A DNA stretch of 64,000 bases from a virus (Duplodnaviria > Caudoviricetes). The notes under the pieces were generated by a model, which ran no database searches, was not told where the DNA came from, and saw nothing but the letters and a program-made list of their open reading frames with translations. The position numbers and the translations under genes are program-made. This document shows positions 3-64,000 of the stretch, one piece after another. The stretch lies in IMG/VR virus record IMGVR_UViG_3300046461_000177, positions 1,400 through 65,399 of that record; one strand, 5' to 3'. Numbering within the stretch: the stretch's first letter is position 1; every line of letters begins with the position of its first letter.

Positions 3-641
3 ACCAGCACCACCACCAGTGCAACAACGGCCGGAGTTTCGACGGCTGCGCCGGCTCAGCCGTCCGCGGCCACGAGCTCGGCCACCACCGCATCGCCCGT
101 CACCCAGGCGACGCAATCGTCACCAGTGACGTTGGCCGACACGCCGGCGAACCCACCGCCGCTCACCACCGACCCACTCGCGCCGCTCGTCGGGCCGGTG
201 GTCAGCGTCTACGACGGCGACACCCTCACCGTCGTGGTCGGGGGTGAGAAGGAATCCGTCCGGCCGCTCGGCATCGACGCCCCCGAGTTGGAGAACAAGG
301 GGCTCGGCATCGTCGGCGAGTGCTACGGGCCGCAGTCGAAAGACGCTGCCCGAGCGCTGCTCACCGGGACCACTGTGCGGCTCACCGTCGACCCCCAGCA
401 GGGTGACGCCAAGGACGACTACCGCGACCTGCACGGCCGACTCCTGCGGTACGTGCAGGTTCCGCTGGACACCGGCGACATCACCACCGCAACCGACACC
501 GTCGACTTCGGTGACTACCAGATCCGCAGCGGCAACGCATGGGTCTACGAGCAGTACCCGGTCAAACGCACACCGGACTACATGACCGAGATGCAGCAGG
601 CCCAGCAGGACCACGAGGGACTCTGGGCGGCCTGCGAATGA
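3..641 (+). CDS. Thermonuclease (SNase-like) with Ser/Thr/Ala/Pro linker, 5' end outside window
   Basis: Frame open from base 3; motifs VVSVYDGDTL, VRPLGIDAPE, GRLLRYV, GLW typical of SNase family. Confidence 0.85.
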   Translation, partial: TSTTTSATTAGVSTAAPAQPSAATSSATTASPVTQATQSSPVTLADTPANPPPLTTDPLAPLVGPVVSVYDGDTLTVVVGGEKESVRPLGIDAPELENKGLGIVGECYGPQSKDAARALLTGTTVRLTVDPQQGDAKDDYRDLHGRLLRYVQVPLDTGDITTATDTVDFGDYQIRSGNAWVYEQYPVKRTPDYMTEMQQAQQDHEGLWAACE

Positions 642-2794: not shown

Positions 2795-5313
2795 GTCTGA
2801 TCGTGAAGATCGTGGGCCGCTCGGGTGACCCAGGCGGTCTGATCAACTACCTCGCGAACGACAAGAATCTGCACGAGAACCAGCGGATCGTGGCTGGCAC
2901 CGTGCGGTACCAGGGGCACCTGGACAAGGAACTCGCGCAGCAGGTGGCCGCCGATCTGCGGTTCTATCAGCAGACCACCGGCAAGGTGATGCCGAAGGGC
3001 CACGTCTACCACGTGACCCTGTCGGCGAGCCGGGAGAACGGGCCGATTCCCGACGCCCGGTGGGACGACATCGCGAACGATTTCATGGACGGCATGCGCT
3101 TCACCGGCCCGAACCTGAGTCCGGTGCGCTGGACCGCGGTGAACCATGGCGCCAACGCTTCCGGCGCCGATCACATCCATATCGCGATGAGCCTGGTGCG
3201 GCAGAACGGCCGACAGGTGAACCTCTACAACGACATGGTCCGGGCCTCCGGGGTGGCGACCAGACTGGAACAGAAGTACGGCCTCGGAGTGCTGCAGACC
3301 CGCCTCGCCCTCATCGGTGCTGGCAGTGTTCCGTACACCCACGGCGAGATCAAGCGGGCTGAGCAGGAAGGACGCCCGGAGGCTGATCGGGTGCGTCTGG
3401 AGCGCGACATCCGGGCGCTGGCCGGGCAGGCGCGCAGTGAGGTGGAGTTCATCAAGCTGGTCAAGGACGACGGCCTGCTGATCGCGCCCTTCCCTCGCGA
3501 GAAGGGCCTCGTCAAGGGTTACTCGGTGGCCCTGCCGACCTCTGCCGGCACCCGGCAGGACTGGCTGGCGGGTGGGAAGCTGGCGAAGGATCTGACCCTG
3601 CCACAGCTTCGCCGCCGCTGGCCGGGGACCCCGAATCAGCGGGTCGCAGCACAGCACGCTTGGCGCGGCAGCGAAGCCGGACAGGATCAGGAGCAGCAGG
3701 CGGACGGCGGCACGGAGGTTACCCCGGACGACCTGGCCGAGGCCCTGCAGCAGGCGACTCCGGCGTCGTTCGCGGACCTGTCTCACGACCTGGCGGCGAA
3801 CCTCGCGGCAGCCAGCCGAATGCTGGAGGAGGTGCCGGGCGAACTGGCGGCGGCCAGTCGGGACGCGGGCGCCTGGGCGCAACCGCACGTGCTGCCGGAG
3901 GGCGCTCCGCTGCTGACCCGAGCGGGTGCCCGCCTCTTCGTCCAGGGCCTTGATCCCAGCGGAGAACGCGGCCGGAGCATCATGTTCCGCCAGTTCGCCG
4001 ACACGATGTTGGAGCTGTACCGACTGCATCAGGTGCAACGCCTGAGAGTCGCAACGAGAAGGCAGGTGGGCAGGATGGACGACGCGAATCCGGCGGCGGA
4101 AGTGATGGACGATGGCACCACACTGGCGGCGACGGGTTCGATGCTCGCCGTCATGCAGACAGCACGGAATGAACGGACGGCGATCGAACACGACACTGCC
4201 GCGGACACCGGAGGAGATGGCGAGATGTTCGGCAAGACCAAGGGACAGGGCGAGGCGAAGAGTGGTGGCCTCGACCTGATCGATCGGGACTTCTTCCGCG
4301 ACGCCCGACGCATGGAGCAGGCGCATCGCGCGTCGGTACGGGAGCAGGCCAAGCTGATCGGTATCGGCCCGCCGGCAACCCCGGACCAGATCGAGAGACT
4401 GGAGAAGTTGTCGGAGCAGGTGGGCCTCCCGCTGGATCGGGAGACCCTGGCCGCGGTACGGCAGGACCGCGCGGCGGACATGATCCTGGACTTCGAGTCG
4501 GCCGCGAAGGACTACGGCCTGCCGCCGATCCAGACCGGGCAGTACGAGGCCGTTGTGTCCAAGGTTGTGGGGCCGTACGGCGTCAGCAATGGCGCCGAGG
4601 CCGACGCTTTCCTGGGCGGGCTGGAACGCCGGGCGCAGCTTCGCCAGGAGGCCGCGGACCTTGCCGCCTTCGACGCCGCCCAGGCCGCCGCCAAGAATGC
4701 CGAAGCGCCATGGATCGACCCGGACCACATGGTTGACACGCCGCCCGATGTCGCGGACATGCGGGCCCAACTGGACCACGTCATGGACTGCGGCCCGCTC
4801 CTGAGCGACGCCCAGGTCGTGGAACAGAACCGCAAGATGCACGCCGCCGGCATTCATCCCGTGCCGGTTGTCAATGGCACTGCGCAGGTGTCGCCACCCC
4901 TCCCGACGGAGGGGGCTGCGTACCAATACCGCGCGGCGCCAGCGCGCTCGGACGCGCCAATATATTCGGGGGATCCGCGCAACTGGGAGAACGCGATGGA
5001 CCCGATCAGCAAGCCACAGCGGTATCGGCTGCAGCAGGCCGGGTTCAGTGACGTGGAGATCGGCGAGCTGGCGGGCAAGGGCGAGGCATCGGTCGTGGTG
5101 GGCGCCTACCTGGGTCCTGATACACCGCCGGTGCCGGACCCAGCGCGCGCTCGCGCGGCGTACGACAAGGTGCAGGCCGAGGCCATTGGCGCAGTCTCAG
5201 GGATGGGTACCCCGACCCAGCCGCGGGTAGCGGATCTGCCGTCGCAGACTGCTACTCCGACCATCGCTGCGCCCCAGCAGGCGTCGCGGAAACCTCTGCG
5301 CCCGACGCAGTAA
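2791..5313 (+). CDS. MOBP family relaxase with long C-terminal extension
   Basis: N-terminal LINYL (catalytic Tyr), VYHVTLS, HG...DHIHIAMSLV HUH motif. Confidence 0.9.
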   Translation: MSLIVKIVGRSGDPGGLINYLANDKNLHENQRIVAGTVRYQGHLDKELAQQVAADLRFYQQTTGKVMPKGHVYHVTLSASRENGPIPDARWDDIANDFMDGMRFTGPNLSPVRWTAVNHGANASGADHIHIAMSLVRQNGRQVNLYNDMVRASGVATRLEQKYGLGVLQTRLALIGAGSVPYTHGEIKRAEQEGRPEADRVRLERDIRALAGQARSEVEFIKLVKDDGLLIAPFPREKGLVKGYSVALPTSAGTRQDWLAGGKLAKDLTLPQLRRRWPGTPNQRVAAQHAWRGSEAGQDQEQQADGGTEVTPDDLAEALQQATPASFADLSHDLAANLAAASRMLEEVPGELAAASRDAGAWAQPHVLPEGAPLLTRAGARLFVQGLDPSGERGRSIMFRQFADTMLELYRLHQVQRLRVATRRQVGRMDDANPAAEVMDDGTTLAATGSMLAVMQTARNERTAIEHDTAADTGGDGEMFGKTKGQGEAKSGGLDLIDRDFFRDARRMEQAHRASVREQAKLIGIGPPATPDQIERLEKLSEQVGLPLDRETLAAVRQDRAADMILDFESAAKDYGLPPIQTGQYEAVVSKVVGPYGVSNGAEADAFLGGLERRAQLRQEAADLAAFDAAQAAAKNAEAPWIDPDHMVDTPPDVADMRAQLDHVMDCGPLLSDAQVVEQNRKMHAAGIHPVPVVNGTAQVSPPLPTEGAAYQYRAAPARSDAPIYSGDPRNWENAMDPISKPQRYRLQQAGFSDVEIGELAGKGEASVVVGAYLGPDTPPVPDPARARAAYDKVQAEAIGAVSGMGTPTQPRVADLPSQTATPTIAAPQQASRKPLRPTQ

Positions 5314-5354
5314 TCCGGTAGCGTCAGGGAGTCCCCTTCCCCGGGGCAACACAC

Positions 5355-5404: not shown

Positions 5405-6004
5405 TCAGCCGGCAAGCGGTGGGAAGTTCACATGCTGACCGGGTCGATCGGGGTGCTGGCTGCAACTGGCCAAGCCGCCACCCTCCGCCCACAACTTCTC
5501 CATCAGCGGGTAGGCGTAAACAGTCAGCCACACGGCCCGTTCGGTCGACGGAACCAGTGGGTCATCCGGCGGTCGGTGAGCCTCGTAGGCGCGCCACAGA
5601 GCTTGGATAACCTCAACCGCTTCGGGGTGCAAGGCCCAGTCCCCGCACCACCGGTAGCCCTGTCCCAACTCGTCCCGCGCGAAAATCCTGGACAGGTATG
5701 CGTGGAAGAACTCAGTGTGGTTGGGGTACTCCGTCGGCGGCCGGGTGGTGACGGTGATCAGGTCGTCCTCGGGGGCGAGGAGCCCGATCGCGGCGACCCG
5801 GTAGACGTAGGTGGTGCTCGGTCTGCAGTTCGGGTCGATGAACTTCCGACCGGAGGTAACGGCCGCGATGCGCTCCATCGGAGCCGGCGGGATGCACCGG
5901 TGGACGACGTAACTGGATGGGATGCCGGGGTCGGTCGCTTCCCGCGACCAGGCCAGCGAGACGGTCTCCCGGCCGCCGTCCGTCACGGTCAGTTTGAGCG
6001 TCAT
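5405..6004 (-). CDS. DUF4913-like conjugation-associated protein with N-terminal FN3-like domain
   Basis: RWCGDWALHPEAV...ALWRAYE...C motif downstream of T4CP; N-terminal VSLAW...STTYVYRVAA. Confidence 0.7.
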   Translation of the reverse strand: MTLKLTVTDGGRETVSLAWSREATDPGIPSSYVVHRCIPPAPMERIAAVTSGRKFIDPNCRPSTTYVYRVAAIGLLAPEDDLITVTTRPPTEYPNHTEFFHAYLSRIFARDELGQGYRWCGDWALHPEAVEVIQALWRAYEAHRPPDDPLVPSTERAVWLTVYAYPLMEKLWAEGGGLASCSQHPDRPGQHVNFPPLAG

Positions 6005-7773
6005 ACGGTCAGCGCCGGGCGGGGTCCGTACATCTCGATGGACCGCTTCACGAGCGCGTCCATCTCGGGATCAAGGAAGTACGGCTCCATCTTGGTGAGC
6101 ACCGGCCGGCCACCGCCGTAGTGGACGATCATCCGCCATTCCGGCAGCGCCGCGATGTCCGATGGGTTGAGAATCGGCACTTCGTGATACTGGGCATTGA
6201 GTGACCTGGAGGCTCGCCCGCCGCCGGTGGTGAAGATGCCGGATGGCGTGCTGTTGCCGGTCGAGTAGGTGCGACGCTCGTAGGGACCGACGATCTTGGA
6301 CAGCTTCTCCAGCAGTTCCATCTCATCGATGCCGCGGCCGTAGAGCCGGTGGGTGGATGCCCCGGAGAGTTTATCCATGCCGTCCTTGCCCCAGGCCGCG
6401 CGGCCTTGTGCCAGGGACTGGAAGATGGCCAGGCAGAGTAACCCCTGGCTGGCGAAGTGGGAGAACCAGTCGGGTAGTGGCTTGATCCTGGCGACGTTCG
6501 CGACCTCGTCCAGGGCGAGCACGCCGGTGGGGTCGATCCGGCCGCCGGGGCAGGTCTTGGCATAGCTACGGGCGGCCTCCGTGATGGCGACGGTGAGCGC
6601 CGCGACCAGCGGCCCGAGGCTGCCGGTGCCCTCCTCGGACAGGCTGATCACCGTGTCGCCCTGGGACCGGACGAACTGGTGCGGGTCGAATTGCGGGCGC
6701 ATGTCGGTGGGGCCGTCCTGCACGATCCAGGCCAACGCCTGGCGGTTGAACAGGAAGTTGATGACCCGCTTGGCGTTGGCGAAGACGCCCCGCTTGGTGT
6801 CCGGATTCAGGTGGAACCCGAAGTCGACGTTGGACGCGGACAGTGCCCAGCCGGCATCCCGCAGGATCCGTACAGGTACACCGCCCTGGTCGGGGTTATT
6901 GATCCAGTACACGACGTCGGTGATCGGCCGACGATCGATAGCGGCTGCCAGTAGGAGTCCAGAGAGCAGGTTGATCCCCTCGGGCTCGAAGAACCCATCG
7001 GTCTTGGCGTCCATGATCCGGGCGGCGTCGGCGAAGATGTTGGCCTGGGTGGTGGCCTTGGTGTCGGCGTCGGCGGCGCATTCGGCGCCGGGTCCGTAGA
7101 TGTAGGTCAACGGGTTCCAGTACCAGGTGGGTTCGACCTCGGCGACCTTCTGCGGATCGAAGCACCAGAACCGGCCCTTCTGCTCCCTGGCGTAGCGGAC
7201 CGCCACGTAAAGGTCAGGCTTGTTGGCTGTGGCGTACGCCCAGCCGGGCGCTTTCAGGACCCACTTGATCACCAGCGCCGAGGTCTTACCCGCACCGGGG
7301 TTCATGACTGCCATGACCGTCGAGCGCCAGTCGGCCCAGAGATCCTTGCCGGTGGCGACCGCCTTACCGAGCGGCAGGCCCACATCAACCCCGGTGGTGT
7401 ATTTCGCGCTGGCATTCTTGGCACGGACGGTTTTCAGGGTCAGTTCCTTGCCGTCGCCCATGAGCTTCGCTCGCGCGTCGATGTGATCCTGGGCTATGCG
7501 TCGTTGTCGCATGGTCATGCCGACGAGAACTACCTGAGCGGCGAATGCGAGCCCGAGCCCGATCGCCAGCGCTGTATGAACGATCCCCCACTCGTCCCAT
7601 GGCGTCGGCTGCAGCTTGGCCCATTTCGCGGGATTCGCGGGGAGCCATTCCGCTGTATTCAGCCAGTGTCCGAGGTGCAATACGCCATAGGTGACGAGGC
7701 CGATCAGGAGCCCCTCCACACCAAGTAGCGTCCAGGTGGGGCCATTTCCGGGCCGGCGCTGGTGAATGCTCAT
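6001..7773 (-). CDS. virD4: Type IV coupling protein (VirD4/TraD/TraG)
   Basis: Two N-terminal TMs, Walker A PGAGKTS, Walker B LALDEVAN, QSLAQ motif. Confidence 0.9.
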   Translation of the reverse strand: MSIHQRRPGNGPTWTLLGVEGLLIGLVTYGVLHLGHWLNTAEWLPANPAKWAKLQPTPWDEWGIVHTALAIGLGLAFAAQVVLVGMTMRQRRIAQDHIDARAKLMGDGKELTLKTVRAKNASAKYTTGVDVGLPLGKAVATGKDLWADWRSTVMAVMNPGAGKTSALVIKWVLKAPGWAYATANKPDLYVAVRYAREQKGRFWCFDPQKVAEVEPTWYWNPLTYIYGPGAECAADADTKATTQANIFADAARIMDAKTDGFFEPEGINLLSGLLLAAAIDRRPITDVVYWINNPDQGGVPVRILRDAGWALSASNVDFGFHLNPDTKRGVFANAKRVINFLFNRQALAWIVQDGPTDMRPQFDPHQFVRSQGDTVISLSEEGTGSLGPLVAALTVAITEAARSYAKTCPGGRIDPTGVLALDEVANVARIKPLPDWFSHFASQGLLCLAIFQSLAQGRAAWGKDGMDKLSGASTHRLYGRGIDEMELLEKLSKIVGPYERRTYSTGNSTPSGIFTTGGGRASRSLNAQYHEVPILNPSDIAALPEWRMIVHYGGGRPVLTKMEPYFLDPEMDALVKRSIEMYGPRPALTV

Positions 7774-12085: not shown

Positions 12086-13566
12086 GTCCATGGACCCCCC
12101 GGCGCCACCGCAAGGGCGACCTCGTCCTACCAGGCAACCGGGGCTTCGAGGGGCTCGGGGGTGGCGCGTGGAAGTACATGAAGGATCCGGACTGGTTTCG
12201 CGCGACCGGGACCGACCTGGCCGGCTTTACTCCCTGGGTGCGAGGCGGCGGCACCAGTCGGTACGGCATCCCGCTGGGGCCGATCAAGGACTCGGTCGGC
12301 ATCCTGCAGTGCGATCCTAAAGCATGGTTCGAGCGGGCGAAGCTCATCAGCTCAGCCTCGGCGTACGTCGCCGGGCTCAACGGGCTCGGCAAGTCAACCC
12401 TATGCCGGCACTGGATCATCGGATGGGAGGGGTACGGCACCCCGACCCTTGTTCTGGCCGACCTGAAAGGCGAGTACGTCGCCACCATCACTGCGCTCGG
12501 CGGCCAGGTGTTACATCTGGCACCGGGCCGTGATCGACTCAACGTCCTGGACATCACCGAGGCGCAGGAGGCAGCACGGCGGTTGTCGCCAGGTCTGGCC
12601 AGCAAGCTGCTCGCAAGTGCCAAGGCTCGCCGCCAGGCCGCCGTGGAGTCGATGTTCGCGATCGAGTGGGGACATGCGCCCAGCCAAGCGGAATGCTCCA
12701 TCCTTCGCGCCCTGATCAAGACGATGGACCTCACCATCAAGGGTGAGGGAGTCATCCAGGATCTCCTGCGGATCCTGCGGGCGCGGCCCGAGCGGGTCCG
12801 CGCCGCCGCTTTGGATCGCGGTGACGACGCGGTCTACGAGCGGGTTACCGAGAATCTGGAACGGACTCTGGTCGACTGGGTCAGCGGGGGTGGCCTGGGC
12901 ACGATCCTTGCTGGAAAAACCACCACCCGCATCCGCCGGGGCAGGTCGGCGGTCATCGACGTGTCCGAGATCGATGAGGACGACGTGAAACTGCGGGCCG
13001 CGGTGATGGTCGCGTCTTGGTCGGCCGGGTTCGGCATGATCGGCATCGGTCACGCATTGTCCGATGCCGGGCTGGAGCCGTATCGGCCGATCGCGATCCT
13101 CCAGGACGAGCTGCAGTTGGCCCTGCAGATTCCTGGCGTCGCCTCGCGTTACAACGCGCTCACCCGGCTTGACCGCCAGTGGGGGGTCGTCCGGGTCCTG
13201 TGCAGTCATTCTGTCGCGGATCCGCAGACCATTGCGAACCGCGAGGATCGAAAGATGGCCGAGGGATTCTTCGGCCGCTCCGGCGTCAAGGTGCTGTTCG
13301 GCCTGGAGCCATCCGATCTGGACATCATCGAGCGGACCACCAAGCTCACCGGACCTGAGCGCGAATATCTCACCGGCCTGACCACGCCGCCCGGCTATGA
13401 CACGGACGGCACGAAAGGACACCCTGGGCGCGGGTTCGCGCTGGTCAAGGCCGGCAATCGGCCGGGGATTCCGTTTGAGCTAAAAGTCCCGCAGTGCGTG
13501 CTGGACCTGAAACTGCACGACACCAACCAGCATTGGCGAATGTCGGACCGGCGGGTTTCGGCATGA
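12082..13566 (+). CDS. virB4: VirB4-like conjugation ATPase
   Basis: Walker A GLNGLGKS, DLKGEY, Walker B ILQDEL, LTRLDR. Confidence 0.85.
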   Translation: MSPWTPRRHRKGDLVLPGNRGFEGLGGGAWKYMKDPDWFRATGTDLAGFTPWVRGGGTSRYGIPLGPIKDSVGILQCDPKAWFERAKLISSASAYVAGLNGLGKSTLCRHWIIGWEGYGTPTLVLADLKGEYVATITALGGQVLHLAPGRDRLNVLDITEAQEAARRLSPGLASKLLASAKARRQAAVESMFAIEWGHAPSQAECSILRALIKTMDLTIKGEGVIQDLLRILRARPERVRAAALDRGDDAVYERVTENLERTLVDWVSGGGLGTILAGKTTTRIRRGRSAVIDVSEIDEDDVKLRAAVMVASWSAGFGMIGIGHALSDAGLEPYRPIAILQDELQLALQIPGVASRYNALTRLDRQWGVVRVLCSHSVADPQTIANREDRKMAEGFFGRSGVKVLFGLEPSDLDIIERTTKLTGPEREYLTGLTTPPGYDTDGTKGHPGRGFALVKAGNRPGIPFELKVPQCVLDLKLHDTNQHWRMSDRRVSA

Positions 13567-14681
13567 GGTGGCGCCGCTGGCTGGTGGCCGCGTCGCTGCC
13601 AGTGGCGCTGGTTCTCACCGGATGCGGGCCGACTGATCAGATCACGCTGGCTGCATCCTCTTGTAGTACATCTGGATCGGACGAGTCCATCTCGCCGGAG
13701 ATGAACGCCAACGCAAAGGCGATCATCGATGTCGCAGAGAGTTTGGGTCTCGGGCAGCGCGGCGCCGAGGTCGGGGTCGTGGTGGCCAAGACGGAATCCG
13801 GCCTGATAAATGTCGGGTTCGGCGACATTCAGAACGGTGTCATGACCTCCAGCCGGGGGTTGTTCCAGCAGATCCTCGCCTGGTCGCCGAACTCTCCCAA
13901 TGACCGCCTGGACCCCCAGAAGGCTGCCACGATGTTCTTTACCGGTGGTAAGGGCGGGCAGAAGGGGTTGATCGACGTCCCCGGCTGGCAGCAGATGGAC
14001 ATCCCGACCGCCGCGCAGACGGTCCAGCAGTCTGAGTTTGACGGCGTCCATCATCCCTATGCCCAGAACTACAAGGATCAGCTTGACGTGAGCCTGCGGA
14101 TCGTCGCCTCGATCCTGGGTAGCACGGGTGCGACCTGCACCCAGGGAAACACGGTCGTCGCCAATGGGGTCAATGTCACCATCCCCAGTAACCAGTTCGT
14201 TGCGGAGGCTGTGCGCGGCAAGGTGATCCAAGCGCCGACGGCTGGGCTGGCGAAGGGCCTGGCGGCGGGATTCAGTCAGCTTGGATTGCCATACGTTTGG
14301 GGTGGTTCGCCAGCCGACGGTGGCGGACCGGATAACGGTTGCTCCCGGGGTGGGGGTGCCCTCAATTCCTGCGGCAGTGAGATCGGGTTCGACTGCTCGG
14401 GGCTGACGGCCTACGTCCTTGTCGCGGCCGGATACTCAGGTCCGGGCACCAACTCGGGCGTCCAGCGGGCCACCGGCCAGGATGTGTCGTGGGAGCAGGG
14501 GTTGCCGGGTGACATCGTCGGCTTCGAGGGTCACGTCGCGATCTATCTGGGCACGATCGACGGAGTGCGCTACATACTTGAAGCATCAACAGTCGGAGTG
14601 CCGATCCATATCGTCAAGCTGACCCGGACCGACTTCGATGCCTCACTCCATCGACACTGGGCTCCATCTGCGGTTCAGTAG
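13563..14681 (+). CDS. Conjugative cell-wall hydrolase: lysozyme-like domain plus NlpC/P60
   Basis: Signal/lipobox LTGC; TES...GLFQQ domain; LGLPYVWGG, GFDCSGL, GHVAIY. Confidence 0.85.
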   Translation: MRWRRWLVAASLPVALVLTGCGPTDQITLAASSCSTSGSDESISPEMNANAKAIIDVAESLGLGQRGAEVGVVVAKTESGLINVGFGDIQNGVMTSSRGLFQQILAWSPNSPNDRLDPQKAATMFFTGGKGGQKGLIDVPGWQQMDIPTAAQTVQQSEFDGVHHPYAQNYKDQLDVSLRIVASILGSTGATCTQGNTVVANGVNVTIPSNQFVAEAVRGKVIQAPTAGLAKGLAAGFSQLGLPYVWGGSPADGGGPDNGCSRGGGALNSCGSEIGFDCSGLTAYVLVAAGYSGPGTNSGVQRATGQDVSWEQGLPGDIVGFEGHVAIYLGTIDGVRYILEASTVGVPIHIVKLTRTDFDASLHRHWAPSAVQ

Positions 14682-56938: not shown

Positions 56939-57439
56939 ATGGCAACAGGCAATATCTCGATCACGGTCGATGGACTCGGCCAGGTGGCCGAGACGGTCAA
57001 CACGGTGGCGGCAATGCTCGCCACCCTCACAGTGAAGGTGGACAAGCTCGTGTCATCCGCAGAACAGATCAGCGCGAACCTCGACAACATCTCGGGGGAC
57101 ATCGACGGCCTCCAGGGCAGCGTCCAGACGCTGCAGCAGGCCAACACCGCCCTCCAGGCCCAGGTCGACGCCCTGCCCGCCGAGGTGGCCACCCAGGTCT
57201 CCGCGGCCCTGGATCAGCAGAACGCGGCCCTGCAGGCGGTCGTACAGAAGTCCCAGGCCCTCGCGGACCGCATCCCGGATTCCACGACTCCTGACCAGCC
57301 GGCGCCGCCGACCGACACCCCCCCGACCGATCAGCCGCCCACGGATACCCCCCCGGTGGACCAGCCCCCGACGGACAACCCGCCCGCAGACAACCCACCG
57401 GCGGACAATCCCAACCCCGCTGGTGACGTCAACGTCTAA
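56939..57439 (+). CDS. Coiled-coil protein with Pro/Asp pentapeptide repeats
   Basis: Heptad region then (T/A/V)D(T/Q/N)PP repeats. Confidence 0.65.
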   Translation: MATGNISITVDGLGQVAETVNTVAAMLATLTVKVDKLVSSAEQISANLDNISGDIDGLQGSVQTLQQANTALQAQVDALPAEVATQVSAALDQQNAALQAVVQKSQALADRIPDSTTPDQPAPPTDTPPTDQPPTDTPPVDQPPTDNPPADNPPADNPNPAGDVNV

Positions 57440-57451
57440 CCGACGCTGCCC

Positions 57452-57493
57452 GAGAGCCCGGTCGCTTGCCACTACTGGCGCGGCCGGGCTTTC
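57452..57493. terminator. Terminator at convergence of late and leftward arms
   Basis: GAGAGCCCGGTCGC..GCCA / TGGC GCGGCCGGGCTTTC stem. Confidence 0.65.
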
Positions 57494-57498
57494 CGCTA

Positions 57499-57816
57499 TC
57501 AGGAGACCGCGCGCTCGTGTGCCAGTTCATAGTCGGCGCGGTTGCGATACATCAGCGGACAGCCCTTGTGGTCCTCCATGCGAACCGTTCCGTCCTGGCG
57601 GAAGACGATCCCCACACCACGCTCGAAGGTGAACGAGTAGCCCATGTACCGCGGCGCGCCGTCGTCATCGATTCGGTCCGCTAGGCGTCGCAGCCGCTCA
57701 CCGATCCAGTGTCTCACCGGGTGGTAGCCACGATGATCAGGCCGATGAGCACCCCCGTCAATACGGCCAACGAACCGATCAGGCACGATACGACCAGTCG
57801 CATCGCCTGATCGCAC
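57499..57816 (-). CDS. Hypothetical phage protein
   Basis: SFTFE.G.G..FR.DG...GCPL.Y motif. Confidence 0.6.
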   Translation of the reverse strand: MRSGDATGRIVPDRFVGRIDGGAHRPDHRGYHPVRHWIGERLRRLADRIDDDGAPRYMGYSFTFERGVGIVFRQDGTVRMEDHKGCPLMYRNRADYELAHERAVS

Positions 57817-57832
57817 GTCAGCGCTTTCCTCT

Positions 57833-58153
57833 TCACTCGGAGTCGGCCTCGGTGAAGTGGCCGGTGTCGCTAGTGAGGGTGCCGGCGAAGTACGTCAGGG
57901 CCACGAACAGGTTCTTGAATGCCGACCGGTGAATCAGCAGGCCGTCGACTTCGATCACGTCGACCCCCCGCACTGCCTCTTCCTGAGCCTTGCGAGTGAA
58001 GGCCACTAGATCCCACCCGTAGATGGTCGCCTCCTGGCCGGATGACTCGTCAACGATGACGAGCAGGTCGTCAACCTGCTGAACGAGCAGGTTCTCAGAG
58101 ATGCGCACGACGGCCTTCCATGAAGCGTTGAATGATCTGGGTCTCACGCTCAT
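57833..58153 (-). CDS. Hypothetical protein
   Basis: ORF in leftward operon. Confidence 0.5.
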   Translation of the reverse strand: MSVRPRSFNASWKAVVRISENLLVQQVDDLLVIVDESSGQEATIYGWDLVAFTRKAQEEAVRGVDVIEVDGLLIHRSAFKNLFVALTYFAGTLTSDTGHFTEADSE

Positions 58154-58177
58154 CGCAGACCCGCAGGTCGATGGCGG

Positions 58178-59182
58178 TCAGGCCGAAGCGACGGCCCGCA
58201 GGTTCATCGTCTTCGGCCGTGCAGGCAAACCAAGGTTGGGTGTCGTGGCCTCGCTGGCCAGCACCACCGGCCGCGGCGTGCGTGTGTCGACCGCTTCCAG
58301 GGTTGCCGTGTTCCGGATCTCCCGCAGGTCGAGGTCCAGTTTGGCTGGCATGGCGACCAGGTCGTTCGCGGTGCGCGCAAAGGCCAAGCCAGGGTCCTCG
58401 CCGGCCTCCAGTGCCTCGCGGGCGGATGTCAGTGCTCGTTCTCCCACGCCCTCCAGGTAGCGACCGCGGGTGTCCTGACGGATCGCCTGGGCCAGCGCGT
58501 TCGCGTCTGCCGGGTTTGCCCCGTGTGCCCACGCGCCCAAACCGTACTCCGCCGGCTCGACGCGGCGCAGGGGGAACTCCGTATCGGCCTCGATGACAAG
58601 CTGGCCGCGCTCCCGCAGGACCGCGGTAACCGTCTCGGCGTCGTGCGCAGCGCCGTCGTTGACCTGGTCCAGGATCGCCTTACCGACGTTCTCATGGAAG
58701 GCGTCGGTGAACTCGTTCCGCACGGTCTGTAGGGCAGGCAGGGCCTCGTCCGACACCATGGCCGCGCCAAGCAGGCCGGTCTCGTTGTAGTCGCGGGTCT
58801 CCTGCAGTGTCGGCGGTTCGATGTCGACGGCCAGGTAGCGCTGCATCTCGACCTTCTCGGCCGCGGCCTCGGCCTTGCGGTCGAGGTCTTGCAATTCTCG
58901 CGCGCGCTGCTGCTCCGCCTTCTGGTCCCAGTTGGCGAGTCGGTCGCTGTCGTCGGACCACCCGTCCGTTGCCATGTCCGGCGCCTTCTCTCTGTGCTTC
59001 ATCCACTCCCTTAGAGTGGGCAGTGGGTGGTCGGCGACCCATTCCTTGTACTCGGTGTCGTACCCCAGGCTGGCATTTGCGGCCAGGGTCTCCTGCCGCT
59101 CGCGCTCCTGACGGTAGTCGTTCACCCAGTTACGGTGGCCGCATGTCGCAGCGCATCCGTGCATTCCAGGTGGGCAGCCCAT
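58178..59182 (-). CDS. DnaB N-terminal-domain-like protein with N-terminal extension
   Basis: E..LLGA.M......F....H..V..AI.......D..TV...L...G; no Walker motifs. Confidence 0.55.
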   Translation of the reverse strand: MGCPPGMHGCAATCGHRNWVNDYRQERERQETLAANASLGYDTEYKEWVADHPLPTLREWMKHREKAPDMATDGWSDDSDRLANWDQKAEQQRARELQDLDRKAEAAAEKVEMQRYLAVDIEPPTLQETRDYNETGLLGAAMVSDEALPALQTVRNEFTDAFHENVGKAILDQVNDGAAHDAETVTAVLRERGQLVIEADTEFPLRRVEPAEYGLGAWAHGANPADANALAQAIRQDTRGRYLEGVGERALTSAREALEAGEDPGLAFARTANDLVAMPAKLDLDLREIRNTATLEAVDTRTPRPVVLASEATTPNLGLPARPKTMNLRAVASA

Positions 59183-59238
59183 GTGACTCCTCTCGGGTGG
59201 GGTAATGTCCCGAGCGTAGCATCCCGCAGCGTCAACAG

Positions 59239-59625
59239 CTAGTCCGTGGGTGCAATCGGAGTGCCGGTGACGATAACCTCGACCCGTGCCTCGCCCTTGA
59301 CGTATTCGATGCGCGGCATGAGCTTCGTCATCCATTTCGGAATATCATCCGGCGTCACCCCAGCGTCGACCAGGCCATCACAGATGGCCTTGAAGTCGTA
59401 CATGGGGTTCTCCTCGTCGCGGCGCTTGCGGTCCGGGACGGTCCACACCATCTCAACGATGCAGTGCTCCAGTGGCGGGATCAAAGCCGCTGTAGCCGCG
59501 TTCATCGCCCACTCCCGGCACCGGGCAATCGCCTTCGCCTTCACGGCCCAGTGGGGGCGATCGTTCATCGACTGGAGAGGCTTGGTCCACTCGGGCCGGA
59601 GAGTCCAGGTCTCAATGGCTACCAC
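59239..59625 (-). CDS. RusA-like Holliday junction resolvase
   Basis: N.R.HW, RRD..N....KA.CDGLVDAG...DD. Confidence 0.75.
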   Translation of the reverse strand: MVAIETWTLRPEWTKPLQSMNDRPHWAVKAKAIARCREWAMNAATAALIPPLEHCIVEMVWTVPDRKRRDEENPMYDFKAICDGLVDAGVTPDDIPKWMTKLMPRIEYVKGEARVEVIVTGTPIAPTD

Positions 59626-59840
59626 GAGTACGACAATCCACCAGCACGCGCGATCTCCAGCCCGTTGTTCCCGGACCGTGCCGCCTCGCAGGGCCACGGC
59701 GTCTGCAAGCCGTCATCCCAGCAGACCGTACAGATCCAGGAGTGTGGCTCGCCCAGGCCATCCCAGTGCGGTTGGTGATAGGCGGCTGGCAATGCTTGCC
59801 GTTGCGCGTAGTTCAACTCCTCTGGAACGATGATCGCCAT
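59619..59840 (-). CDS. Small phage protein (H-x-P...CxxC...WPC)
   Basis: HQP...CTVCWD...WPC. Confidence 0.6.
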   Translation of the reverse strand: MAIIVPEELNYAQRQALPAAYHQPHWDGLGEPHSWICTVCWDDGLQTPWPCEAARSGNNGLEIARAGGLSYSW

Positions 59841-60085
59841 CAGAGCAGGTCCAGTTCCGCCTGCAGGAGCGCGAGCCGGAGATCCGGGTCCTCCAGCAGG
59901 GTCTCACGCTCGCAGGCGTCGGGCTTACGGGTGGCACCGTGCCCGATGTAGATCGAGAACTGGGCGCATGACTCGCAGATCATGATGGCGCCCGGTTCGG
60001 TTGTGTCGGCGCCCAGGATCGTTTCGGATTCCCGGTTGATTACCCCGCAGTACGGGCAACCGCCGGGCGGCAAGATGTTCACCAT
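59840..60085 (-). CDS. Zn-ribbon hypothetical protein
   Basis: CPYC...CESC. Confidence 0.55.
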   Translation of the reverse strand: MVNILPPGGCPYCGVINRESETILGADTTEPGAIMICESCAQFSIYIGHGATRKPDACERETLLEDPDLRLALLQAELDLL

Positions 60086-60270
60086 TCGGGGAAGTTCCCT
60101 TCCAGACGGAAGTACTCAGCGGCGTGATACGGGCCATCAGCGTGCCGGCTCCGGCCCGAGTAGTCGAACTCCTCATCGCCACGCTGGACCGCCTGGCGTG
60201 CTTCGCCACGGTCGCCGGCGTACTCGTCAGCGTCCGGGCCACAGTCCCAGGTGGCTGGGATCTTCGCCAT
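60079..60270 (-). CDS. Hypothetical protein
   Basis: RBS GAGGAG. Confidence 0.5.
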   Translation of the reverse strand: MAKIPATWDCGPDADEYAGDRGEARQAVQRGDEEFDYSGRSRHADGPYHAAEYFRLEGNFPEW

Positions 60271-60452
60271 CACTTGCTCCTCTCGGTGGATGATTCGCGG
60301 ACCGTCAGCGACACCTGCACAAGCGCAATGAAGAGGAGCAGAACCCCACCCACCGTCCGCAGCCAACTGTCCTGCGTCATGGTCAGGAACACGACCGCGA
60401 TGGTGACGCTGGCCAAGCACAGCGCGAGCTGCAGCTTCACTCGCCGTGTCAT
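60270..60452 (-). CDS. Small two-TM protein
   Basis: Hydrophobic, coupled. Confidence 0.5.
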   Translation of the reverse strand: MTRRVKLQLALCLASVTIAVVFLTMTQDSWLRTVGGVLLLFIALVQVSLTVRESSTERSK

Positions 60453-60655
60453 CGCATCCATTCCTGTTCGTCGCCTTCGAGCGCCATCTCGGTCATGTAC
60501 GCCAGGTAGAGCTGGCCATCGCGGCGCATGGTGATCAGCCTCTGACCGGGATAGACGTCCTCGTACAGTGGTGCGACAGCATTCGCAGCCAACTCGGCGC
60601 GCGCCGGATTGTCGCCCACCCAGAACATCGCCATCACCTCCATGCGCATTCTCAT
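60449..60655 (-). CDS. Hypothetical protein
   Basis: ATGA coupling. Confidence 0.5.
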   Translation of the reverse strand: MRMRMEVMAMFWVGDNPARAELAANAVAPLYEDVYPGQRLITMRRDGQLYLAYMTEMALEGDEQEWMR

Positions 60656-60879
60656 GCCTCACCACCGAAGCCATGCGGATTCCACTGCTCGCGTGTCCGG
60701 ATCGAGTCGATCTCCAGAAGCAGCCTCCGTCCCCAGTCGTCCGGCTTGCCGGTCTGTGACTCCGTGACGTCGATCTGCATCGAGATCCGCTCTCGGGCCT
60801 CGAATAGCACTCTGGAGAGGTCACGCGATGACGTATTCATCAGATACCAGGAGGGGCCGATCTGCGGGCTCGCGCTCAT
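60652..60879 (-). CDS. Hypothetical protein
   Basis: ATGA coupling. Confidence 0.55.
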   Translation of the reverse strand: MSASPQIGPSWYLMNTSSRDLSRVLFEARERISMQIDVTESQTGKPDDWGRRLLLEIDSIRTREQWNPHGFGGEA

Positions 60880-61073
60880 CCATTGGCCCCGATCTCGGTG
60901 CTACCGCCGCGGCGCTTGCTGGACAACCGGATCTTGCCCGGTGCCAGCGGCTCGTAGATCAGCACGCCACTGACGATCGTGTCGCCGGTCAGTGGGTTGT
61001 GCTCGAAGGTCATGCCGCCGGAGACGTACACGCGGGCACTGGTCTTGGCGGCTGGGATCGGCTGGTCGCTCAC
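60876..61073 (-). CDS. Hypothetical protein
   Basis: GTGA coupling, RBS GGTGGAG. Confidence 0.5.
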   Translation of the reverse strand: MSDQPIPAAKTSARVYVSGGMTFEHNPLTGDTIVSGVLIYEPLAPGKIRLSSKRRGGSTEIGANG

Positions 61074-61222
61074 ATCTCCACCTCGAACTCGACCTTGCAG
61101 TCCGCGCACCGGGCCACGACGTAATCCCCTTCGTCGTCCAGGATCTCGTGCGGCCCGTCGCTCTCGCATTCCGGGCACGGGCCGACGATCGTGTCCGGCC
61201 GGACCACTCGCAGATTCCTCAC
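61070..61222 (-). CDS. Small Zn-ribbon protein MRNLRVV...CPEC...CADC
   Basis: 50-aa ORF coupled at both ends. Confidence 0.55.
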   Translation of the reverse strand: MRNLRVVRPDTIVGPCPECESDGPHEILDDEGDYVVARCADCKVEFEVEM

Positions 61223-61224
61223 GC
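61202..61224. repeat. 23-bp direct repeat copy 1 (GACCACTCGCAGATTCCTCACGC)
   Basis: Identical to 63696-63718. Confidence 0.9.
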
Positions 61225-61911
61225 TGCCTCCTGATTTTCGAGCCACCCGAGCAGTTTCGGGAGATTGATGTCTGGGCCGAACGACACGTAGGTGCCGTCG
61301 ACCGAATCGCAGCCAATGGATGCGGCATAGTCGAACCGCATCTTAGAGTTCACCCGGCCCATGTGGACCTCTTTGCCGTGCCGCTTGGCTTCGGCAATGA
61401 GTCGGCGGGCAACCTCTCCCAGCTTCCATTCGGTCACCGGGAGGTTGCAATGCGGGCACCTGGGCCGATGGTTCCTTGGCGGCTTGGGTGCGTCGATCGG
61501 CCGGGTGTAGCTGCACGGGAGGCATTCCTGCGTGCCGCCGATGAACAGAACGTCAAACTCATCCCACGGCACAACGGTGCGCTCGATCCCGTTCTGGGCG
61601 ACGAATGCGGCCGGCACGCCCAGTGCGCGGATCTTCGGCAACCATGGACGGGATCTGACGAGGGTCGCCGCTGCGTCGCCGACCACGTCGGGAGCTGTCG
61701 CAAACCGGCACCGTTCCAACGGTTTGGTCTGCAGCCAGGCCAGCCATTCCTCGTCACCGGGGTAGCCCTTGCCGAAGCAGCCATTGTCGGCGCAGAACCA
61801 GGCGCCCTCGGGTGTCAGGTTGCCCTGGACTGGGGTGGTGATGCAGTCGATCAGGCCGGCGCTCATGGCCGCCCGGACGGACGGCGTCGACGGGTTTGCG
61901 AAATAGCGCAT
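61219..61911 (-). CDS. TGT-fold / DpdA-like deazaguanine DNA transglycosylase candidate
   Basis: DNGCF, APDVVGD, LFIGG, VHMGRVN, DSVDGT; last gene of que operon. Confidence 0.6.
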   Translation of the reverse strand: MRYFANPSTPSVRAAMSAGLIDCITTPVQGNLTPEGAWFCADNGCFGKGYPGDEEWLAWLQTKPLERCRFATAPDVVGDAAATLVRSRPWLPKIRALGVPAAFVAQNGIERTVVPWDEFDVLFIGGTQECLPCSYTRPIDAPKPPRNHRPRCPHCNLPVTEWKLGEVARRLIAEAKRHGKEVHMGRVNSKMRFDYAASIGCDSVDGTYVSFGPDINLPKLLGWLENQEAA

Positions 61912-61914
61912 GCG

Positions 61915-62595
61915 TCAGTGTCCACGCTCATCAGCCCAGGCGAGTAGGTGGAGGCGGTGGCTGGCATTGATTCCGAGAGCAGCAGCGGCGCCCGCGATCG
62001 TCGGCCACCTCCCTCCGACCTCGTCAGTGGTTTGTCCTTCCGGCATAACCCACGTTCGATCCCTTGCCCAGCCCCAAGCCTGTGCCGACGCGGCTGCGCC
62101 GACAACGTCATCCGGTGTCTGGGCCACGACTTTTAGGAATGCCGCAGGGACGCTGGGCCACCCACTCCAGGGAGCAGGGTTGCGGCCGTGGTGATCACCC
62201 GCGTGCGGCATCTTCGGCGACACGGCGATTAGGTCACAGCAAGCGCGGGTGATCGCGAATGGCGCGATGGTGCCGTTCGTCTCTAGGTGCACCGAATACC
62301 GAACTTTGAGTTGCGTCATCAACTGAGCCCAGAGCGGGTTTCGCTGATGGAGCAGTGGCTCGCCGCCGGTGACCACCACGATCTCCGCAGCCGGTAACGC
62401 TTGCAGGATCTCTTCGATGGTCATCGGGGTGATCTCTTTGCGAAGGTCGAACCTCGAACCGTCCCAGGAGTACGGGGTGTCGCACCAGGAGCAGGAGAGA
62501 TTGCAGCCACCGAGGCGCAGGAAAACGGCATTGCGCCCGGCCGCAGGCCCCTCGCCCTGCAGGGTTGGGCCGAAGATTTCCACGACAGGGATCAC
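61915..62595 (-). CDS. queE: 7-carboxy-7-deazaguanine synthase (radical SAM)
   Basis: EIFGPTLQGEG, GCNLSCSWCDT, TGGEP, ETNG, VSPK, RLH. Confidence 0.95.
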   Translation of the reverse strand: MIPVVEIFGPTLQGEGPAAGRNAVFLRLGGCNLSCSWCDTPYSWDGSRFDLRKEITPMTIEEILQALPAAEIVVVTGGEPLLHQRNPLWAQLMTQLKVRYSVHLETNGTIAPFAITRACCDLIAVSPKMPHAGDHHGRNPAPWSGWPSVPAAFLKVVAQTPDDVVGAAASAQAWGWARDRTWVMPEGQTTDEVGGRWPTIAGAAAALGINASHRLHLLAWADERGH

Positions 62596-62951
62596 TGCAG
62601 ACCCCGATAGGTGGCCCACGTCTTGGGTGACTCGGACCAGGAGACAGCAGAGACCGGCCACATCTCCCGATCGCACCACTGGTAGAGGTAGGCCGCCATG
62701 TTTTCGGCCGTCGGGTTGAACGACACGGCCTCATTGAGGTGTCGGTGGTCGAACGACTCCTCCAGGAACTTGCCGAACACCGACAACTCGCCGTAGTCCA
62801 GAACCATACCGACGTCATTCACCGGTCCGGTCAGTTCCACTCGCACGATCACGTTATGACCGTGCAGCCGGGCGCACTGATGTCCCTCCGGCAGTCCATT
62901 GAGTTGGTGCGAGATGCTGATTGTGAAGTCCTTGGTGATGGTGGCGATCAT
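62592..62951 (-). CDS. queD: 6-carboxytetrahydropterin synthase
   Basis: SH.L, C.RLHGHN, DH.HLN, PTAEN.A, ES..T.A. Confidence 0.95.
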   Translation of the reverse strand: MIATITKDFTISISHQLNGLPEGHQCARLHGHNVIVRVELTGPVNDVGMVLDYGELSVFGKFLEESFDHRHLNEAVSFNPTAENMAAYLYQWCDREMWPVSAVSWSESPKTWATYRGLQ

Positions 62952-63598
62952 GCTGACACCCCGGCGTCGGCGAACGCCTCGGCGCGCTCGACGCAGGCAC
63001 CGCACTCCCCGCAGGCCAGTGCACGGCCCTCGTAGCAGGAGTAGGAAAGGTCAAGCGGCGCGCCGAGTTGCAGCCCGAGGCGCACGACCTCGGTCTTACT
63101 GATCCCGAGGAACGGTGCCCGGATCGAAACAGCCCCCTCCGTTGCTAGTCCGACGGCCACGTCGGCTGCGTCGATGAAGTCCGGCCGGCAGTCCGGGTAG
63201 ACGGGCAGGTCACCGCCGTGAACCCCGATCACCACGGCGCTGCGGCCCTGAGACTGGGCAATGCCGGCGGCTGCCATGAGCAGGGTCGCGTTCCGATTGG
63301 GGACGATCGTAGCGGCCATAGCCGGGTCGGCATAGTGCCCGTGTGGCACCGGAACGGCAGCGTCCGTCAGTGACGACCGCACCAAGGCGCCCCAGCTCGT
63401 CAGGTCGAGCACGTAGTGCGGGACGCCGTAGTGGGCGGCGATGACCCGCGCCCGGCTCAGTTCCAGTCGGTGACGCTGGCCGTAGCTGACCGACAGGGCG
63501 GCCGGACGCGAATCCCAGTCCATCTCGACGGCGAGTGCGACCAGCGAATCAAGGCCGCCGGACAGTAGGACCAGGGGACCTGCAGAGTTGGTTGTCAT
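62948..63598 (-). CDS. queC: 7-cyano-7-deazaguanine synthase
   Basis: LSGGLDS, YGQRH, VPNRN, YPDCRP, SCY...CGECGAC.ER. Confidence 0.95.
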   Translation of the reverse strand: MTTNSAGPLVLLSGGLDSLVALAVEMDWDSRPAALSVSYGQRHRLELSRARVIAAHYGVPHYVLDLTSWGALVRSSLTDAAVPVPHGHYADPAMAATIVPNRNATLLMAAAGIAQSQGRSAVVIGVHGGDLPVYPDCRPDFIDAADVAVGLATEGAVSIRAPFLGISKTEVVRLGLQLGAPLDLSYSCYEGRALACGECGACVERAEAFADAGVSA

Positions 63599-63625
63599 TG
63601 GTTCCTCTCGGTGGGGTGTTCCACC

Positions 63626-63654
63626 AACCTACACTTCCCCTGGGTTTATGTCAA
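63626..63654 (-). promoter_or_regulatory. SigA-type promoter of que cassette
   Basis: TTGACA-17-TAGGTT, then GAGAGG RBS before queC. Confidence 0.75.
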
Positions 63655-63695
63655 CAGCGGAGCTAGGGCAGAAGCCCTCTCATCTGTTCCAACTC

Positions 63696-63718
63696 GACCA
63701 CTCGCAGATTCCTCACGC
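63696..63718. repeat. 23-bp direct repeat copy 2
   Basis: Identical to 61202-61224. Confidence 0.9.
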
Positions 63719-64000
63719 CGGTAGTCCCTCCTGCCCCAAGTGTTGCTTCATCCGGGCTGCGATTAGTGGCAGGTAGTCACACTCGCGCTCGATGCCGATG
63801 GACTTAAATCCCTCCAGGTGGGCTGCCTCCAAAGTGGTGCCGGTGCCCGCGAACGGGTCGAGCACGGTGCCACCGTTGGGGGTGACCAGCTTCACCAGCC
63901 AGCGCATGAGTGTGAGTGGTTTGACGGTTGGGTGTGCGATGCCGTCAACTTTCGGCCGCTCTTTGGTTGGTGCTTTGGCGACGTAGAAGAATCGTGACGC
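63713..64000 (-). CDS. N4/N6 DNA methyltransferase, C-terminal part (5' outside window)
   Basis: HPTVKP..LMRWL, VLDPFAGTGTT, IGIE. Confidence 0.9.
   Translation of the reverse strand, partial: ASRFFYVAKAPTKERPKVDGIAHPTVKPLTLMRWLVKLVTPNGGTVLDPFAGTGTTLEAAHLEGFKSIGIERECDYLPLIAARMKQHLGQEGLPA

Follow-up and report, generated by a model that had tools for sequence, protein, structure and literature searches.

A doubled gene start around a queCDE/dpdA-like gene block of a phage contig as the probable scar of a single illegitimate crossover

We have analyzed a 64,000-nt stretch of phage DNA (the window; bases 1400–65399 of the 65,399-nt IMG/VR virus record IMGVR_UViG_3300046461_000177, so that the window end is the contig end), in which queC, queD, queE, and a fourth gene, here called dpdA-like, lie on the minus strand between two identical copies of a 23-nt sequence. 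Each copy contains the start of a small zinc-ribbon gene (ZnR), and only one of the two starts opens the intact gene. We consider it likely that this repeat was left behind when two related phages recombined by a single illegitimate crossover, with a microhomology of only 2 nt at the joint.

The 23-mer GACCACTCGCAGATTCCTCACGC occurs exactly twice, at 61202–61224 (copy A) and at 63696–63718 (copy B), with a spacing of 2494 nt and identity at 23 of 23 positions. When up to three mismatches were allowed, these were still the only two matches in the 64-kb window, a number that none of 100 shuffles reached, and the 23-mer is the longest exact direct repeat of the whole 65,399-nt contig, followed by repeats of 18 and 17 nt. 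On the minus strand, both copies read GCG TGA with the overlapping GTG AGG AAT CTG CGA GTG GTC. Copy A thereby holds the stop codon of the dpdA-like gene and the GTG start of ZnR (61070–61222, minus strand), which encodes 50 residues with a CPEC...CADC pattern, has only sub-threshold matches to Pfam and NCBIfam zinc-finger models, and overlaps with its stop the GTG of the next gene. Copy B holds the stop codon (TGA, 63713–63715) of a DNA methyltransferase gene (MTase) and the GTG start of a 17-codon open reading frame (ORF), the stub VRNLRVVELEQMRGLLP (63663–63716, minus strand), which is closed by a stop codon and whose codons 1–7 are those of the ZnR start. An alternative ZnR start, GTG at 61207, would give a 45-aa form, and gene callers on related contigs are split between 50 aa and 45 aa; we favor the first GTG because neighboring genes of this string are all coupled via 4-nt ATGA or GTGA overlaps. 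The initial annotation of this DNA had described the two 23-mers as bracketing a promoter, queC, queD, queE, and the DpdA-like gene, and each copy as the stop of the upstream gene joined to an MRNLRVV start that opens the intact ZnR at copy A and the 17-codon stub at copy B; apart from the promoter, considered below, this description is exact, and it also follows by construction that recombination between the copies would restore the coupling of MTase to ZnR.

At the inner side of copy B, similarity vanishes directly after the 23 identical bases. ZnR goes on with CGGCCGGAC, the stub with GAGTTGGAA, and the last ten codons of the stub with its stop (63663–63695) are unlike ZnR. As a decayed gene duplicate would keep residual similarity, this abrupt end of identity looks like a joint. 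On the other side of the repeat, the motif CAGGAGG is found 2 nt (dpdA-like) or 8 nt (MTase) upstream of the GCG, and the C-terminal tails of DpdA-like and MTase relatives are variable and often end in Ala-Ala-stop. Rather than reaching as foreign sequence into either upstream gene, GCG TGA may thus be native to both.

A possible origin of the unrelated bases is indicated by metagenome contigs. According to a run index, 24 soil, rhizosphere, and root metagenome runs hold part of the region 58500–64000; in eight of them, half or more of the sampled words are present, and three of these eight (X1–X3) may be the source of the record. Contigs of four runs (X4, X8, X9, and X11) were compared with the window, and all results given for them rest on 32 of 209 pieces and 24 of 197 loose ends. 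The queCDE/dpdA-like block is present in all four runs. In X9, the conserved block extends from the ZnR stop (about 61072) to position 63697, and ZnR thus travels with the cassette: the pieces 62718–63697 (record 29; 6 differences in 980 nt, 99.4% identity), 62328–62695 (0 differences in 368 nt, 100%), and 61072–62052 (record 27, with ZnR and the dpdA-like gene; 25 differences in 981 nt, 97.5%) together have 31 differences in 2329 compared nt (98.7%), whereas the neighboring pieces 59709–60287 (81 differences in 579 nt) and 60654–61031 (53 in 378 nt) are each only 86% identical, with 134 differences in 957 nt taken together. After 63697, the 2,989-nt contig of record 29 continues with more than 255 letters that are unlike the window, beginning at the inner edge of copy B. 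Since copy B starts at 63696, one base before this position, X9 has the stub tail, but at this place neither the 23-mer nor MTase. The cassette is covered in X9 at a depth of about 7, MTase at about 2. Read by hand in the stub-tail frame, which is open upstream in X9, 30 loose letters give ten sense codons, all with G or C at the third position; the gene candidates of the window were chosen at a G+C fraction at third codon positions (GC3) of at least 0.75 and range from 0.75 to 0.94. This suggests that the stub tail is, in X9, the genuine 3′ end of a gene that lies upstream, for which we use the name geneX. At the other end of the block, X9 keeps the dpdA-like gene, the 23-mer region, and ZnR contiguous, and its ZnR starts with MRNLRVV (P0002). 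A single crossover predicts a ZnR start behind the dpdA-like gene in both lineages, whereas an insertion into an empty site would yield it only by coincidence.

The contigs of X11 show a similar step at the same place, with 87% identity at 60652–61057 versus 95–100% at 61066–63950, and the X11 cassette is an X9-type allele, as indicated by common differences at 63146, 63344, 63584, 63621, and 63657. From these alignments, the identity steps in X9 and X11 appear to be the usual mosaicism of phages, with modules that meet at gene ends. Two further mosaic joints at gene ends were seen in X9: the small gene at 60449–60655 is missing, with the 213 nt of 60441–60653 replaced by 13 other letters, and 139 other letters stand in place of 61032–61071, where the gene after ZnR has its first 40 nt. 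Both repeat copies were recovered outside the record. In X4, a 151-nt contig (63683–63833) links, with 0 differences, 13 nt of the stub tail via copy B with MTase; record 7 of X11 (63394–63710) enters copy B from the cassette side and leaves at least 15 nt of it unchanged; and copy A is spanned by record 27 of X9 and record 4 of X11 (61066–61296). The contigs of X4, X9, and X11 thus indicate that the repeat is not an artefact of one assembly. Excess depth in the bin 61076–61259 seems to come from short matches of contigs of other organisms (loose ends at 61125, 61159, and 61166) and was not used.

A single crossover would account for these observations as follows. The same small ZnR, including its start region, would have been present in both parents but preceded by different genes. 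Parent 1, of the kind seen in X9, would have had the order geneX, promoter-like site, queC, queD, queE, dpdA-like, ZnR. For parent 2, we infer MTase followed directly by ZnR, and we likewise infer the direction of the event. The joint would connect codon 7 of the ZnR of parent 2 (...GTG GTC) with the eleventh-from-last codon of geneX, with TC common to both, so that the last ten codons of geneX would have been kept. The recombinant would then have the order MTase, 23-mer, 10-codon geneX tail, promoter-like site, queCDE, dpdA-like, 23-mer, intact ZnR; the ZnR start would thus be doubled, and its first copy would open a dead 17-codon frame. Such a crossover explains why the identity stops abruptly after GTGGTC, why 34 unrelated bases stand between copy B and the promoter-like site, why the ZnR start follows the dpdA-like gene in both lineages, and why neither a mobility gene nor an inverted repeat is found. 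We expect the block to be part of the leftward early transcription, perhaps with an additional promoter of its own, and to read into ZnR via the GTGA overlap. As a module of the preQ0 pathway with a putative transglycosylase, it would be expected to place 7-cyano-7-deazaguanine (dPreQ0) into the phage DNA as a protection against restriction.

The initial annotation had inferred an inserted module, and our data support a module acquired by recombination, with the stub as a leftover ZnR start. The further proposal of a recently inserted, potentially excisable module that switches genome modification on or off is not supported. No recombinase, transposase, or integrase was found in or beside the block, a homing endonuclease is likewise missing among the profile matches of the block, whose four ORFs are QueC, QueD, QueE, and DpdA-like, and the inverted-repeat listing shows no terminal pair at the block ends. 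The repeat would have no dedicated function; now and then, short-homology recombination or replication slippage at the repeat could remove the block irreversibly, and a deletion between the 23-nt repeats, while mechanically possible, would be rare and one-way. The contigs of the four runs contain no joint that skips the 2494 nt, which is weak evidence, as contigs drop rare variants. Nor is the stretch from repeat to repeat the exchanged unit, because the high-identity block of X9 and X11 starts at the ZnR stop, and that of X9 ends at 63697 with another upstream neighbor. As to recent insertion, 23 identical bases are uninformative at an allelic divergence of 1–3%, and the block does not stand out from its flanks in G+C content.

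Several points weigh against the crossover as we propose it. The GCG before the TGA and the CAGGAGG that are common to both sites could represent a longer and older boundary sequence, which would favor homologous exchange at a linker. The GC3-rich open frame of X9 comprises only 30 consensus letters of one contig that were read by hand, and metagenome contigs may mix strains. X11, despite its X9-type cassette, continues into copy B, and another X11 contig covers MTase without differences; both upstream contexts therefore circulate and recombine freely, which leaves the order of events unfixed. The arrangement of parent 2, with MTase directly followed by ZnR, was not observed in the collections and runs searched, and a relative that lacks the block and has an empty site with a single repeat was not found in the collections and the four runs. 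X8, X9, and X11, with run shares near 0.5, had been considered as holders of an empty site and were rejected, since coverage is low (X8) or flanks are divergent (X9, X11), and the cassette is present. None of the searches for an empty site or for relatives shows absence in nature. The exact 23-mer had 0 occurrences in each of the viral, genome, and metagenome contig collections, and the ZnR protein gave 0 loci in viral contigs. An alignment of ZnR gave 488 pattern matches in metagenome contigs, none of them confirmed, and two loci in genome contigs that are only 14-residue chance matches. A tblastn search with ZnR against 50,697 phage records gave no match, and megablast with 60400–64000 against phages found only a 46-nt match in ReqiPine5. 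In a protein database, ZnR has 13 variants from metagenome assemblies that are 84–100% identical, fall into two 90% clusters, and have a conserved start region; they are encoded on about 29 public contigs, the longest with 102,261 nt. The flanks of 80 IMG/VR loci with MTase relatives (58–79% identity) and of 22 loci with DpdA-like relatives (33–61%) contain no homologue of ZnR, queC, queD, or queE, and these loci thus give no synteny information. At the IMG/VR locus L030 (around 5264–5330), a 78%-identical MTase is followed by a GTGA-overlapping ORF that starts with MRCATCRVEFD... and recalls the C-terminal CADCKVEFEVE of ZnR; this resemblance, which may be accidental, escaped tblastn.

Among other explanations, an exchange at a boundary sequence has to be weighed most carefully. 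Here, the 23-mer, perhaps together with CAGGAGG, would be a conserved linker at which the queCDE–dpdA block was inserted between MTase and ZnR by homologous recombination with the help of host or phage recombinases, and from which it could be lost in the same way, resulting in a presence/absence polymorphism. This corresponds to the picture of the initial annotation with the switch removed. The exact placement of the repeat at stop/start overlaps, the clean MTase–ZnR junction that copy–copy recombination restores, the CAGGAGG upstream of GCG in both upstream genes, and the start region conserved across the 13 ZnR variants all fit this idea, and the 29-bp repeats of LRRHood were read in that way (PMC3029335). 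However, it leaves the stub tail at 63663–63695, between copy B and the promoter-like site, unexplained, and in X9 the homology stops at the inner edge of copy B without a second 23-mer there. With neither an empty site nor a joint skipping 2494 nt in the contigs of the four runs, and with the 23-mer missing from the three scanned collections and thus not a widespread linker, we regard such an exchange as rather unlikely. Selection could also have kept the doubled start as a translation-initiation or operator site that couples translation after MTase and after dpdA-like, the stub being a coupling or leader ORF. The whole string is indeed joined by 4-nt overlaps, the 23-mer includes a stop, a GAGGAA Shine–Dalgarno-like motif, and two in-frame GTGs, and X11 retains at least 15 nt of copy B unchanged. 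Yet the stub ends 64 nt before queC with the promoter-like site in between, neither an RNA family nor an exceptionally stable fold was found (the fold around stub and leader has a z-score of −0.98), X9 does without copy B, and there are just two copies in the genome, all of which makes a selected element improbable.

Even less can be said for a self-mobile element, such as a transposon or a homing or integron-type cassette, that duplicated 23 nt of its target. A direct repeat around a discrete gene block is what such an element would leave, but all four ORFs are assigned, a transposase, integrase, or homing endonuclease is lacking as are inverted repeats at the ends, and the X9 context shows that the element would lack a fixed terminus on the left. 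To our knowledge, a target duplication of 23 nt is also longer than those of known transposases, and we consider this origin very improbable. An assembly artefact, in which a chimeric contig joins two strain variants at a common 23-mer, appears equally hard to believe. It would be favored by a metagenome sample with several co-occurring variants and by a contig that ends within the MTase gene, and on the stub side the X4 contig extends over just 13 letters, fewer than the 31 required for a bridging record. Nevertheless, this independent contig links stub tail, copy B, and MTase without differences, X11 record 7 enters copy B, copy A is spanned in X9 and X11, and assembler word sizes usually exceed 23 nt.

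The primary papers on models of phage mosaicism are reportedly those of Hendrix, Pedulla, Susskind and Botstein, and Clark. Two of these models, illegitimate recombination and recombination at boundary sequences, are set against each other in a study that also presents the closest parallel to our case that we can name, the Cluster C1 mycobacteriophage LRRHood (Pope et al., 2011, PLoS One 6:e16329, PMC3029335). In LRRHood, according to this source, 29-bp direct repeats at gene ends enclose a four-gene segment of 1.35 kb, and relatives have the repeat as a single copy, an arrangement ascribed by the authors to recombination with another phage. In the same study, Island3 has a duplication of about 50 bp beside an inserted gene. 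LRRHood as described there resembles the window in the short exact repeat at gene ends (29 versus 23 nt), in the four-gene block for which no recombinase is reported inside, and in the actinobacteriophage-type genome; unlike in the window, relatives with an empty site are known. The window, on the other hand, has a relative that carries the block with a different upstream neighbor, and a 10-codon foreign tail inside the repeat-bounded stretch, both of which argue for an illegitimate joint rather than for an exchange within the repeat. The model of illegitimate recombination agrees with module edges at gene boundaries, with identity steps of 98.7% versus 86%, and with a microhomology of 2 nt. 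Whereas typical mosaic joints leave no duplication, the crossover seen in the window would have been unequal, keeping 23 nt of a gene start twice, and the joint is directly readable.

The identities predicted for QueC, QueD, and QueE are well supported. QueC, the 7-cyano-7-deazaguanine synthase (216 aa; 62948–63598, minus strand), matches PF06508 (7.6e-58) and TIGR00364 (176.9 bits versus a cut-off of 150.3) and consists of the QueC domain alone, without an amidotransferase fusion. The 6-carboxytetrahydropterin synthase gene queD (62592–62951, minus strand), whose start overlaps the queC stop by ATGA, is recognized by PF01242 (5.1e-28, 97.9 bits, above the Pfam cut-off) and falls under the cut-off of TIGR03367 (84.2 versus 89.25 bits). 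For queE (61915–62595, minus strand), encoding the radical-SAM 7-carboxy-7-deazaguanine synthase, we took the GTG at 62595 that overlaps the queD stop (GTGA) as start; its product matches PF04055 (Radical_SAM; 1.5e-10, above the cut-off) and the QueE-like phrog_2076 (4.5e-56), and it matches the NCBIfam QueE models below their cut-offs. A GTP cyclohydrolase I (FolE) was not detected, as PF01227 matches nothing in the 65,399 nt of this 88%-complete record; FolE could come from the host, or its gene could lie in the missing part of the record.

The only sizeable non-coding gap of the gene string (63599–63662) contains the sequence TTGACA-17-TAGGTT (63626–63654, minus strand), 27 nt upstream of the queC ATG. 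It is the single match to TTGACA-N16-18-TANNNT in the window, with 0.15 matches expected by chance and at least one match in 15 of 100 shuffles. As a stricter sigma-70 consensus scan did not include this site among its matches, the promoter of the initial annotation is retained as promoter-like only. Of four terminator-like sites in 57000–64000, none is at or near either block end, and one lies within queE on the opposite strand. An Rfam scan of the same region with E values up to 1 gave only a weak small-RNA match at 60005–60069, outside the block, and no preQ1 riboswitch. Morons, in the term of Hendrix and colleagues, are promoter–gene–terminator units inserted between phage genes, and the block is moron-like in that extra genes with a promoter-like site stand between two genes that would otherwise be coupled. 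Unlike a moron, it has no distal terminator, reads into ZnR by a GTGA overlap, and does not differ from its flanks in G+C content.

The fourth gene (230 aa; 61219–61911, minus strand) belongs to phrog_15826 (7.9e-82), a family annotated with "unknown function," and has no Pfam or NCBIfam match. We call it dpdA-like and regard it as no more than a putative transglycosylase. Homologues occur at 23 places in cultured phages, of which 12 are annotated as DpdA-like tRNA-guanine transglycosylase (TGT) or as queuine tRNA-ribosyltransferase. An AlphaFold model, based on a 12-sequence alignment, predicts a triosephosphate isomerase (TIM) barrel with a mean predicted local distance difference test score (pLDDT) of 90.1, and a structural search against representatives gave the TGT 3unt_A as top match (Z 14.4, root-mean-square deviation 2.9, 192 aligned residues), with Cap10, archaeosine TGT, the DNA preQ0 insertase DpdA 7ui4_A (Z 13.5), and QTRT2 among the top 15. 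By hhalign, the invariant DNGxF...APDVVGD of the family is paired with DSGAF...LDVIGD of canonical DpdAs. The transglycosylase part of our interpretation is weakened by the fact that further TIM-barrel enzymes, among them epimerases and aldolases, score within 1 Z of these matches, that hhalign against three canonical phage DpdAs gave a probability of 3.4%, and that PF01702, the model of canonical TGT/DpdA, is matched neither by this protein nor anywhere else in the 65.4-kb record. Foldseek alone returned generic TIM barrels with TGT at rank 5, and the profile of the family had no match among PDB sequences. An insertion of about 32 residues with a CxxC...CxxC pattern (residues ~128–159; window 61480–61575), modeled at lower confidence (pLDDT 68–85), is found in the window protein and in two of 11 aligned relatives (L002 and L003) and may represent an optional zinc-binding subdomain.

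Known dPreQ0 systems provide a context for the block. Hutinet et al. (2019, PMC6884629) report dPreQ0 at about 28% of G in Rosebush and none measured in Orion, which has DpdA only, and DpdA1-4 and bDpdA were defined later (Hutinet et al., 2023, PMC10516641). In the account of the former, the Rosebush gp2–gp6 cluster resembles the window in contiguous queC, queD, and queE in that order, in an actinobacterial-type host range, and in a high G+C content. The lack of an amidotransferase fusion of QueC, in the window as in Rosebush, predicts dPreQ0 as the product. In Rosebush, Sonali, and the IMG/VR locus L105, a canonical DpdA is encoded upstream of queC and FolE downstream of queE, whereas the window is without both in 65.4 kb and has the phrog_15826 gene in place after queE. 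Sonali has both transglycosylase-like kinds: in this Arthrobacter phage (L108, 6001–6618 and 8988–9878), a canonical DpdA adjoins queC-D-E-folE, and a DpdA-like homologue with 54% identity lies about 3 kb upstream. Among the 22 IMG/VR homologues (33–61% identity), none has queC, queD, or queE in the fetched flanks, and the window is the sole case among those examined with the phrog_15826 family directly behind queCDE. The main texts of PMC6884629 and PMC10516641 do not name Sonali and ReqiPine5, which carry the DpdA-like family.

The block belongs to a record of an uncultured phage that is classed as linear, with a CheckV completeness of 88% and a G+C content of 65%. Genes for terminase, portal, major head, major tail, tape measure, and endolysin-like proteins are on the plus strand at 16.8–57.4 kb, followed on the minus strand, from 57.7 kb to the contig end, by the tightly packed string that contains the block. 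This string also holds a sub-threshold match to a DnaB N-terminal domain, a RusA-like resolvase, and several small ORFs, and it is closed by MTase, an N6/N4 DNA methyltransferase (PF01555 2e-18, phrog_67 1.4e-31), of which only the 3′ part (63713–64000, minus strand) is present, as it is truncated by the contig end. In the left 16 kb, conjugation-type genes are found at 5405–7773 (minus), 13494–14681 (plus), and 3–641 (plus); this part has a TraG/TraD-type IV coupling protein (PF12696 6e-25, PF02534 1.7e-17), a DUF4913 protein, an NlpC/P60 hydrolase, and a staphylococcal-nuclease homologue, and most of its large ORFs are without family assignment. The record may represent a phage with plasmid cargo or cargo resembling an integrative and conjugative element, or a prophage that adjoins an integrative element.

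In conclusion, the window adds a well-resolved example to a kind of phage mosaic joint that is already known, and it reveals neither a new mobility mechanism nor a regulatory switch. Most phage mosaic joints leave no trace of their formation, whereas a doubled gene start and a probable 10-codon donor remnant allow a reconstruction at the level of single bases here, which makes the window a clean textbook example of an anti-restriction DNA-modification module passing between phages. The phrog_15826 gene behind queCDE is the sole transglycosylase candidate in the record, which is circumstantial support for an insertion of preQ0 into DNA by that family, and phrog_15826 proteins may be DNA transglycosylases. 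A more far-reaching and clearly speculative possibility, to which we give little credence, combines two ideas: that the block is an accessory module gained and lost in the soil-phage population by short-homology recombination at the ZnR start, and that phrog_15826 represents a sixth DpdA subfamily able to act as sole DNA transglycosylase. If this were true, sister phages would differ only in 7-deazaguanine DNA modification, as a presence/absence polymorphism that is tuned to the restriction pressure of the host.

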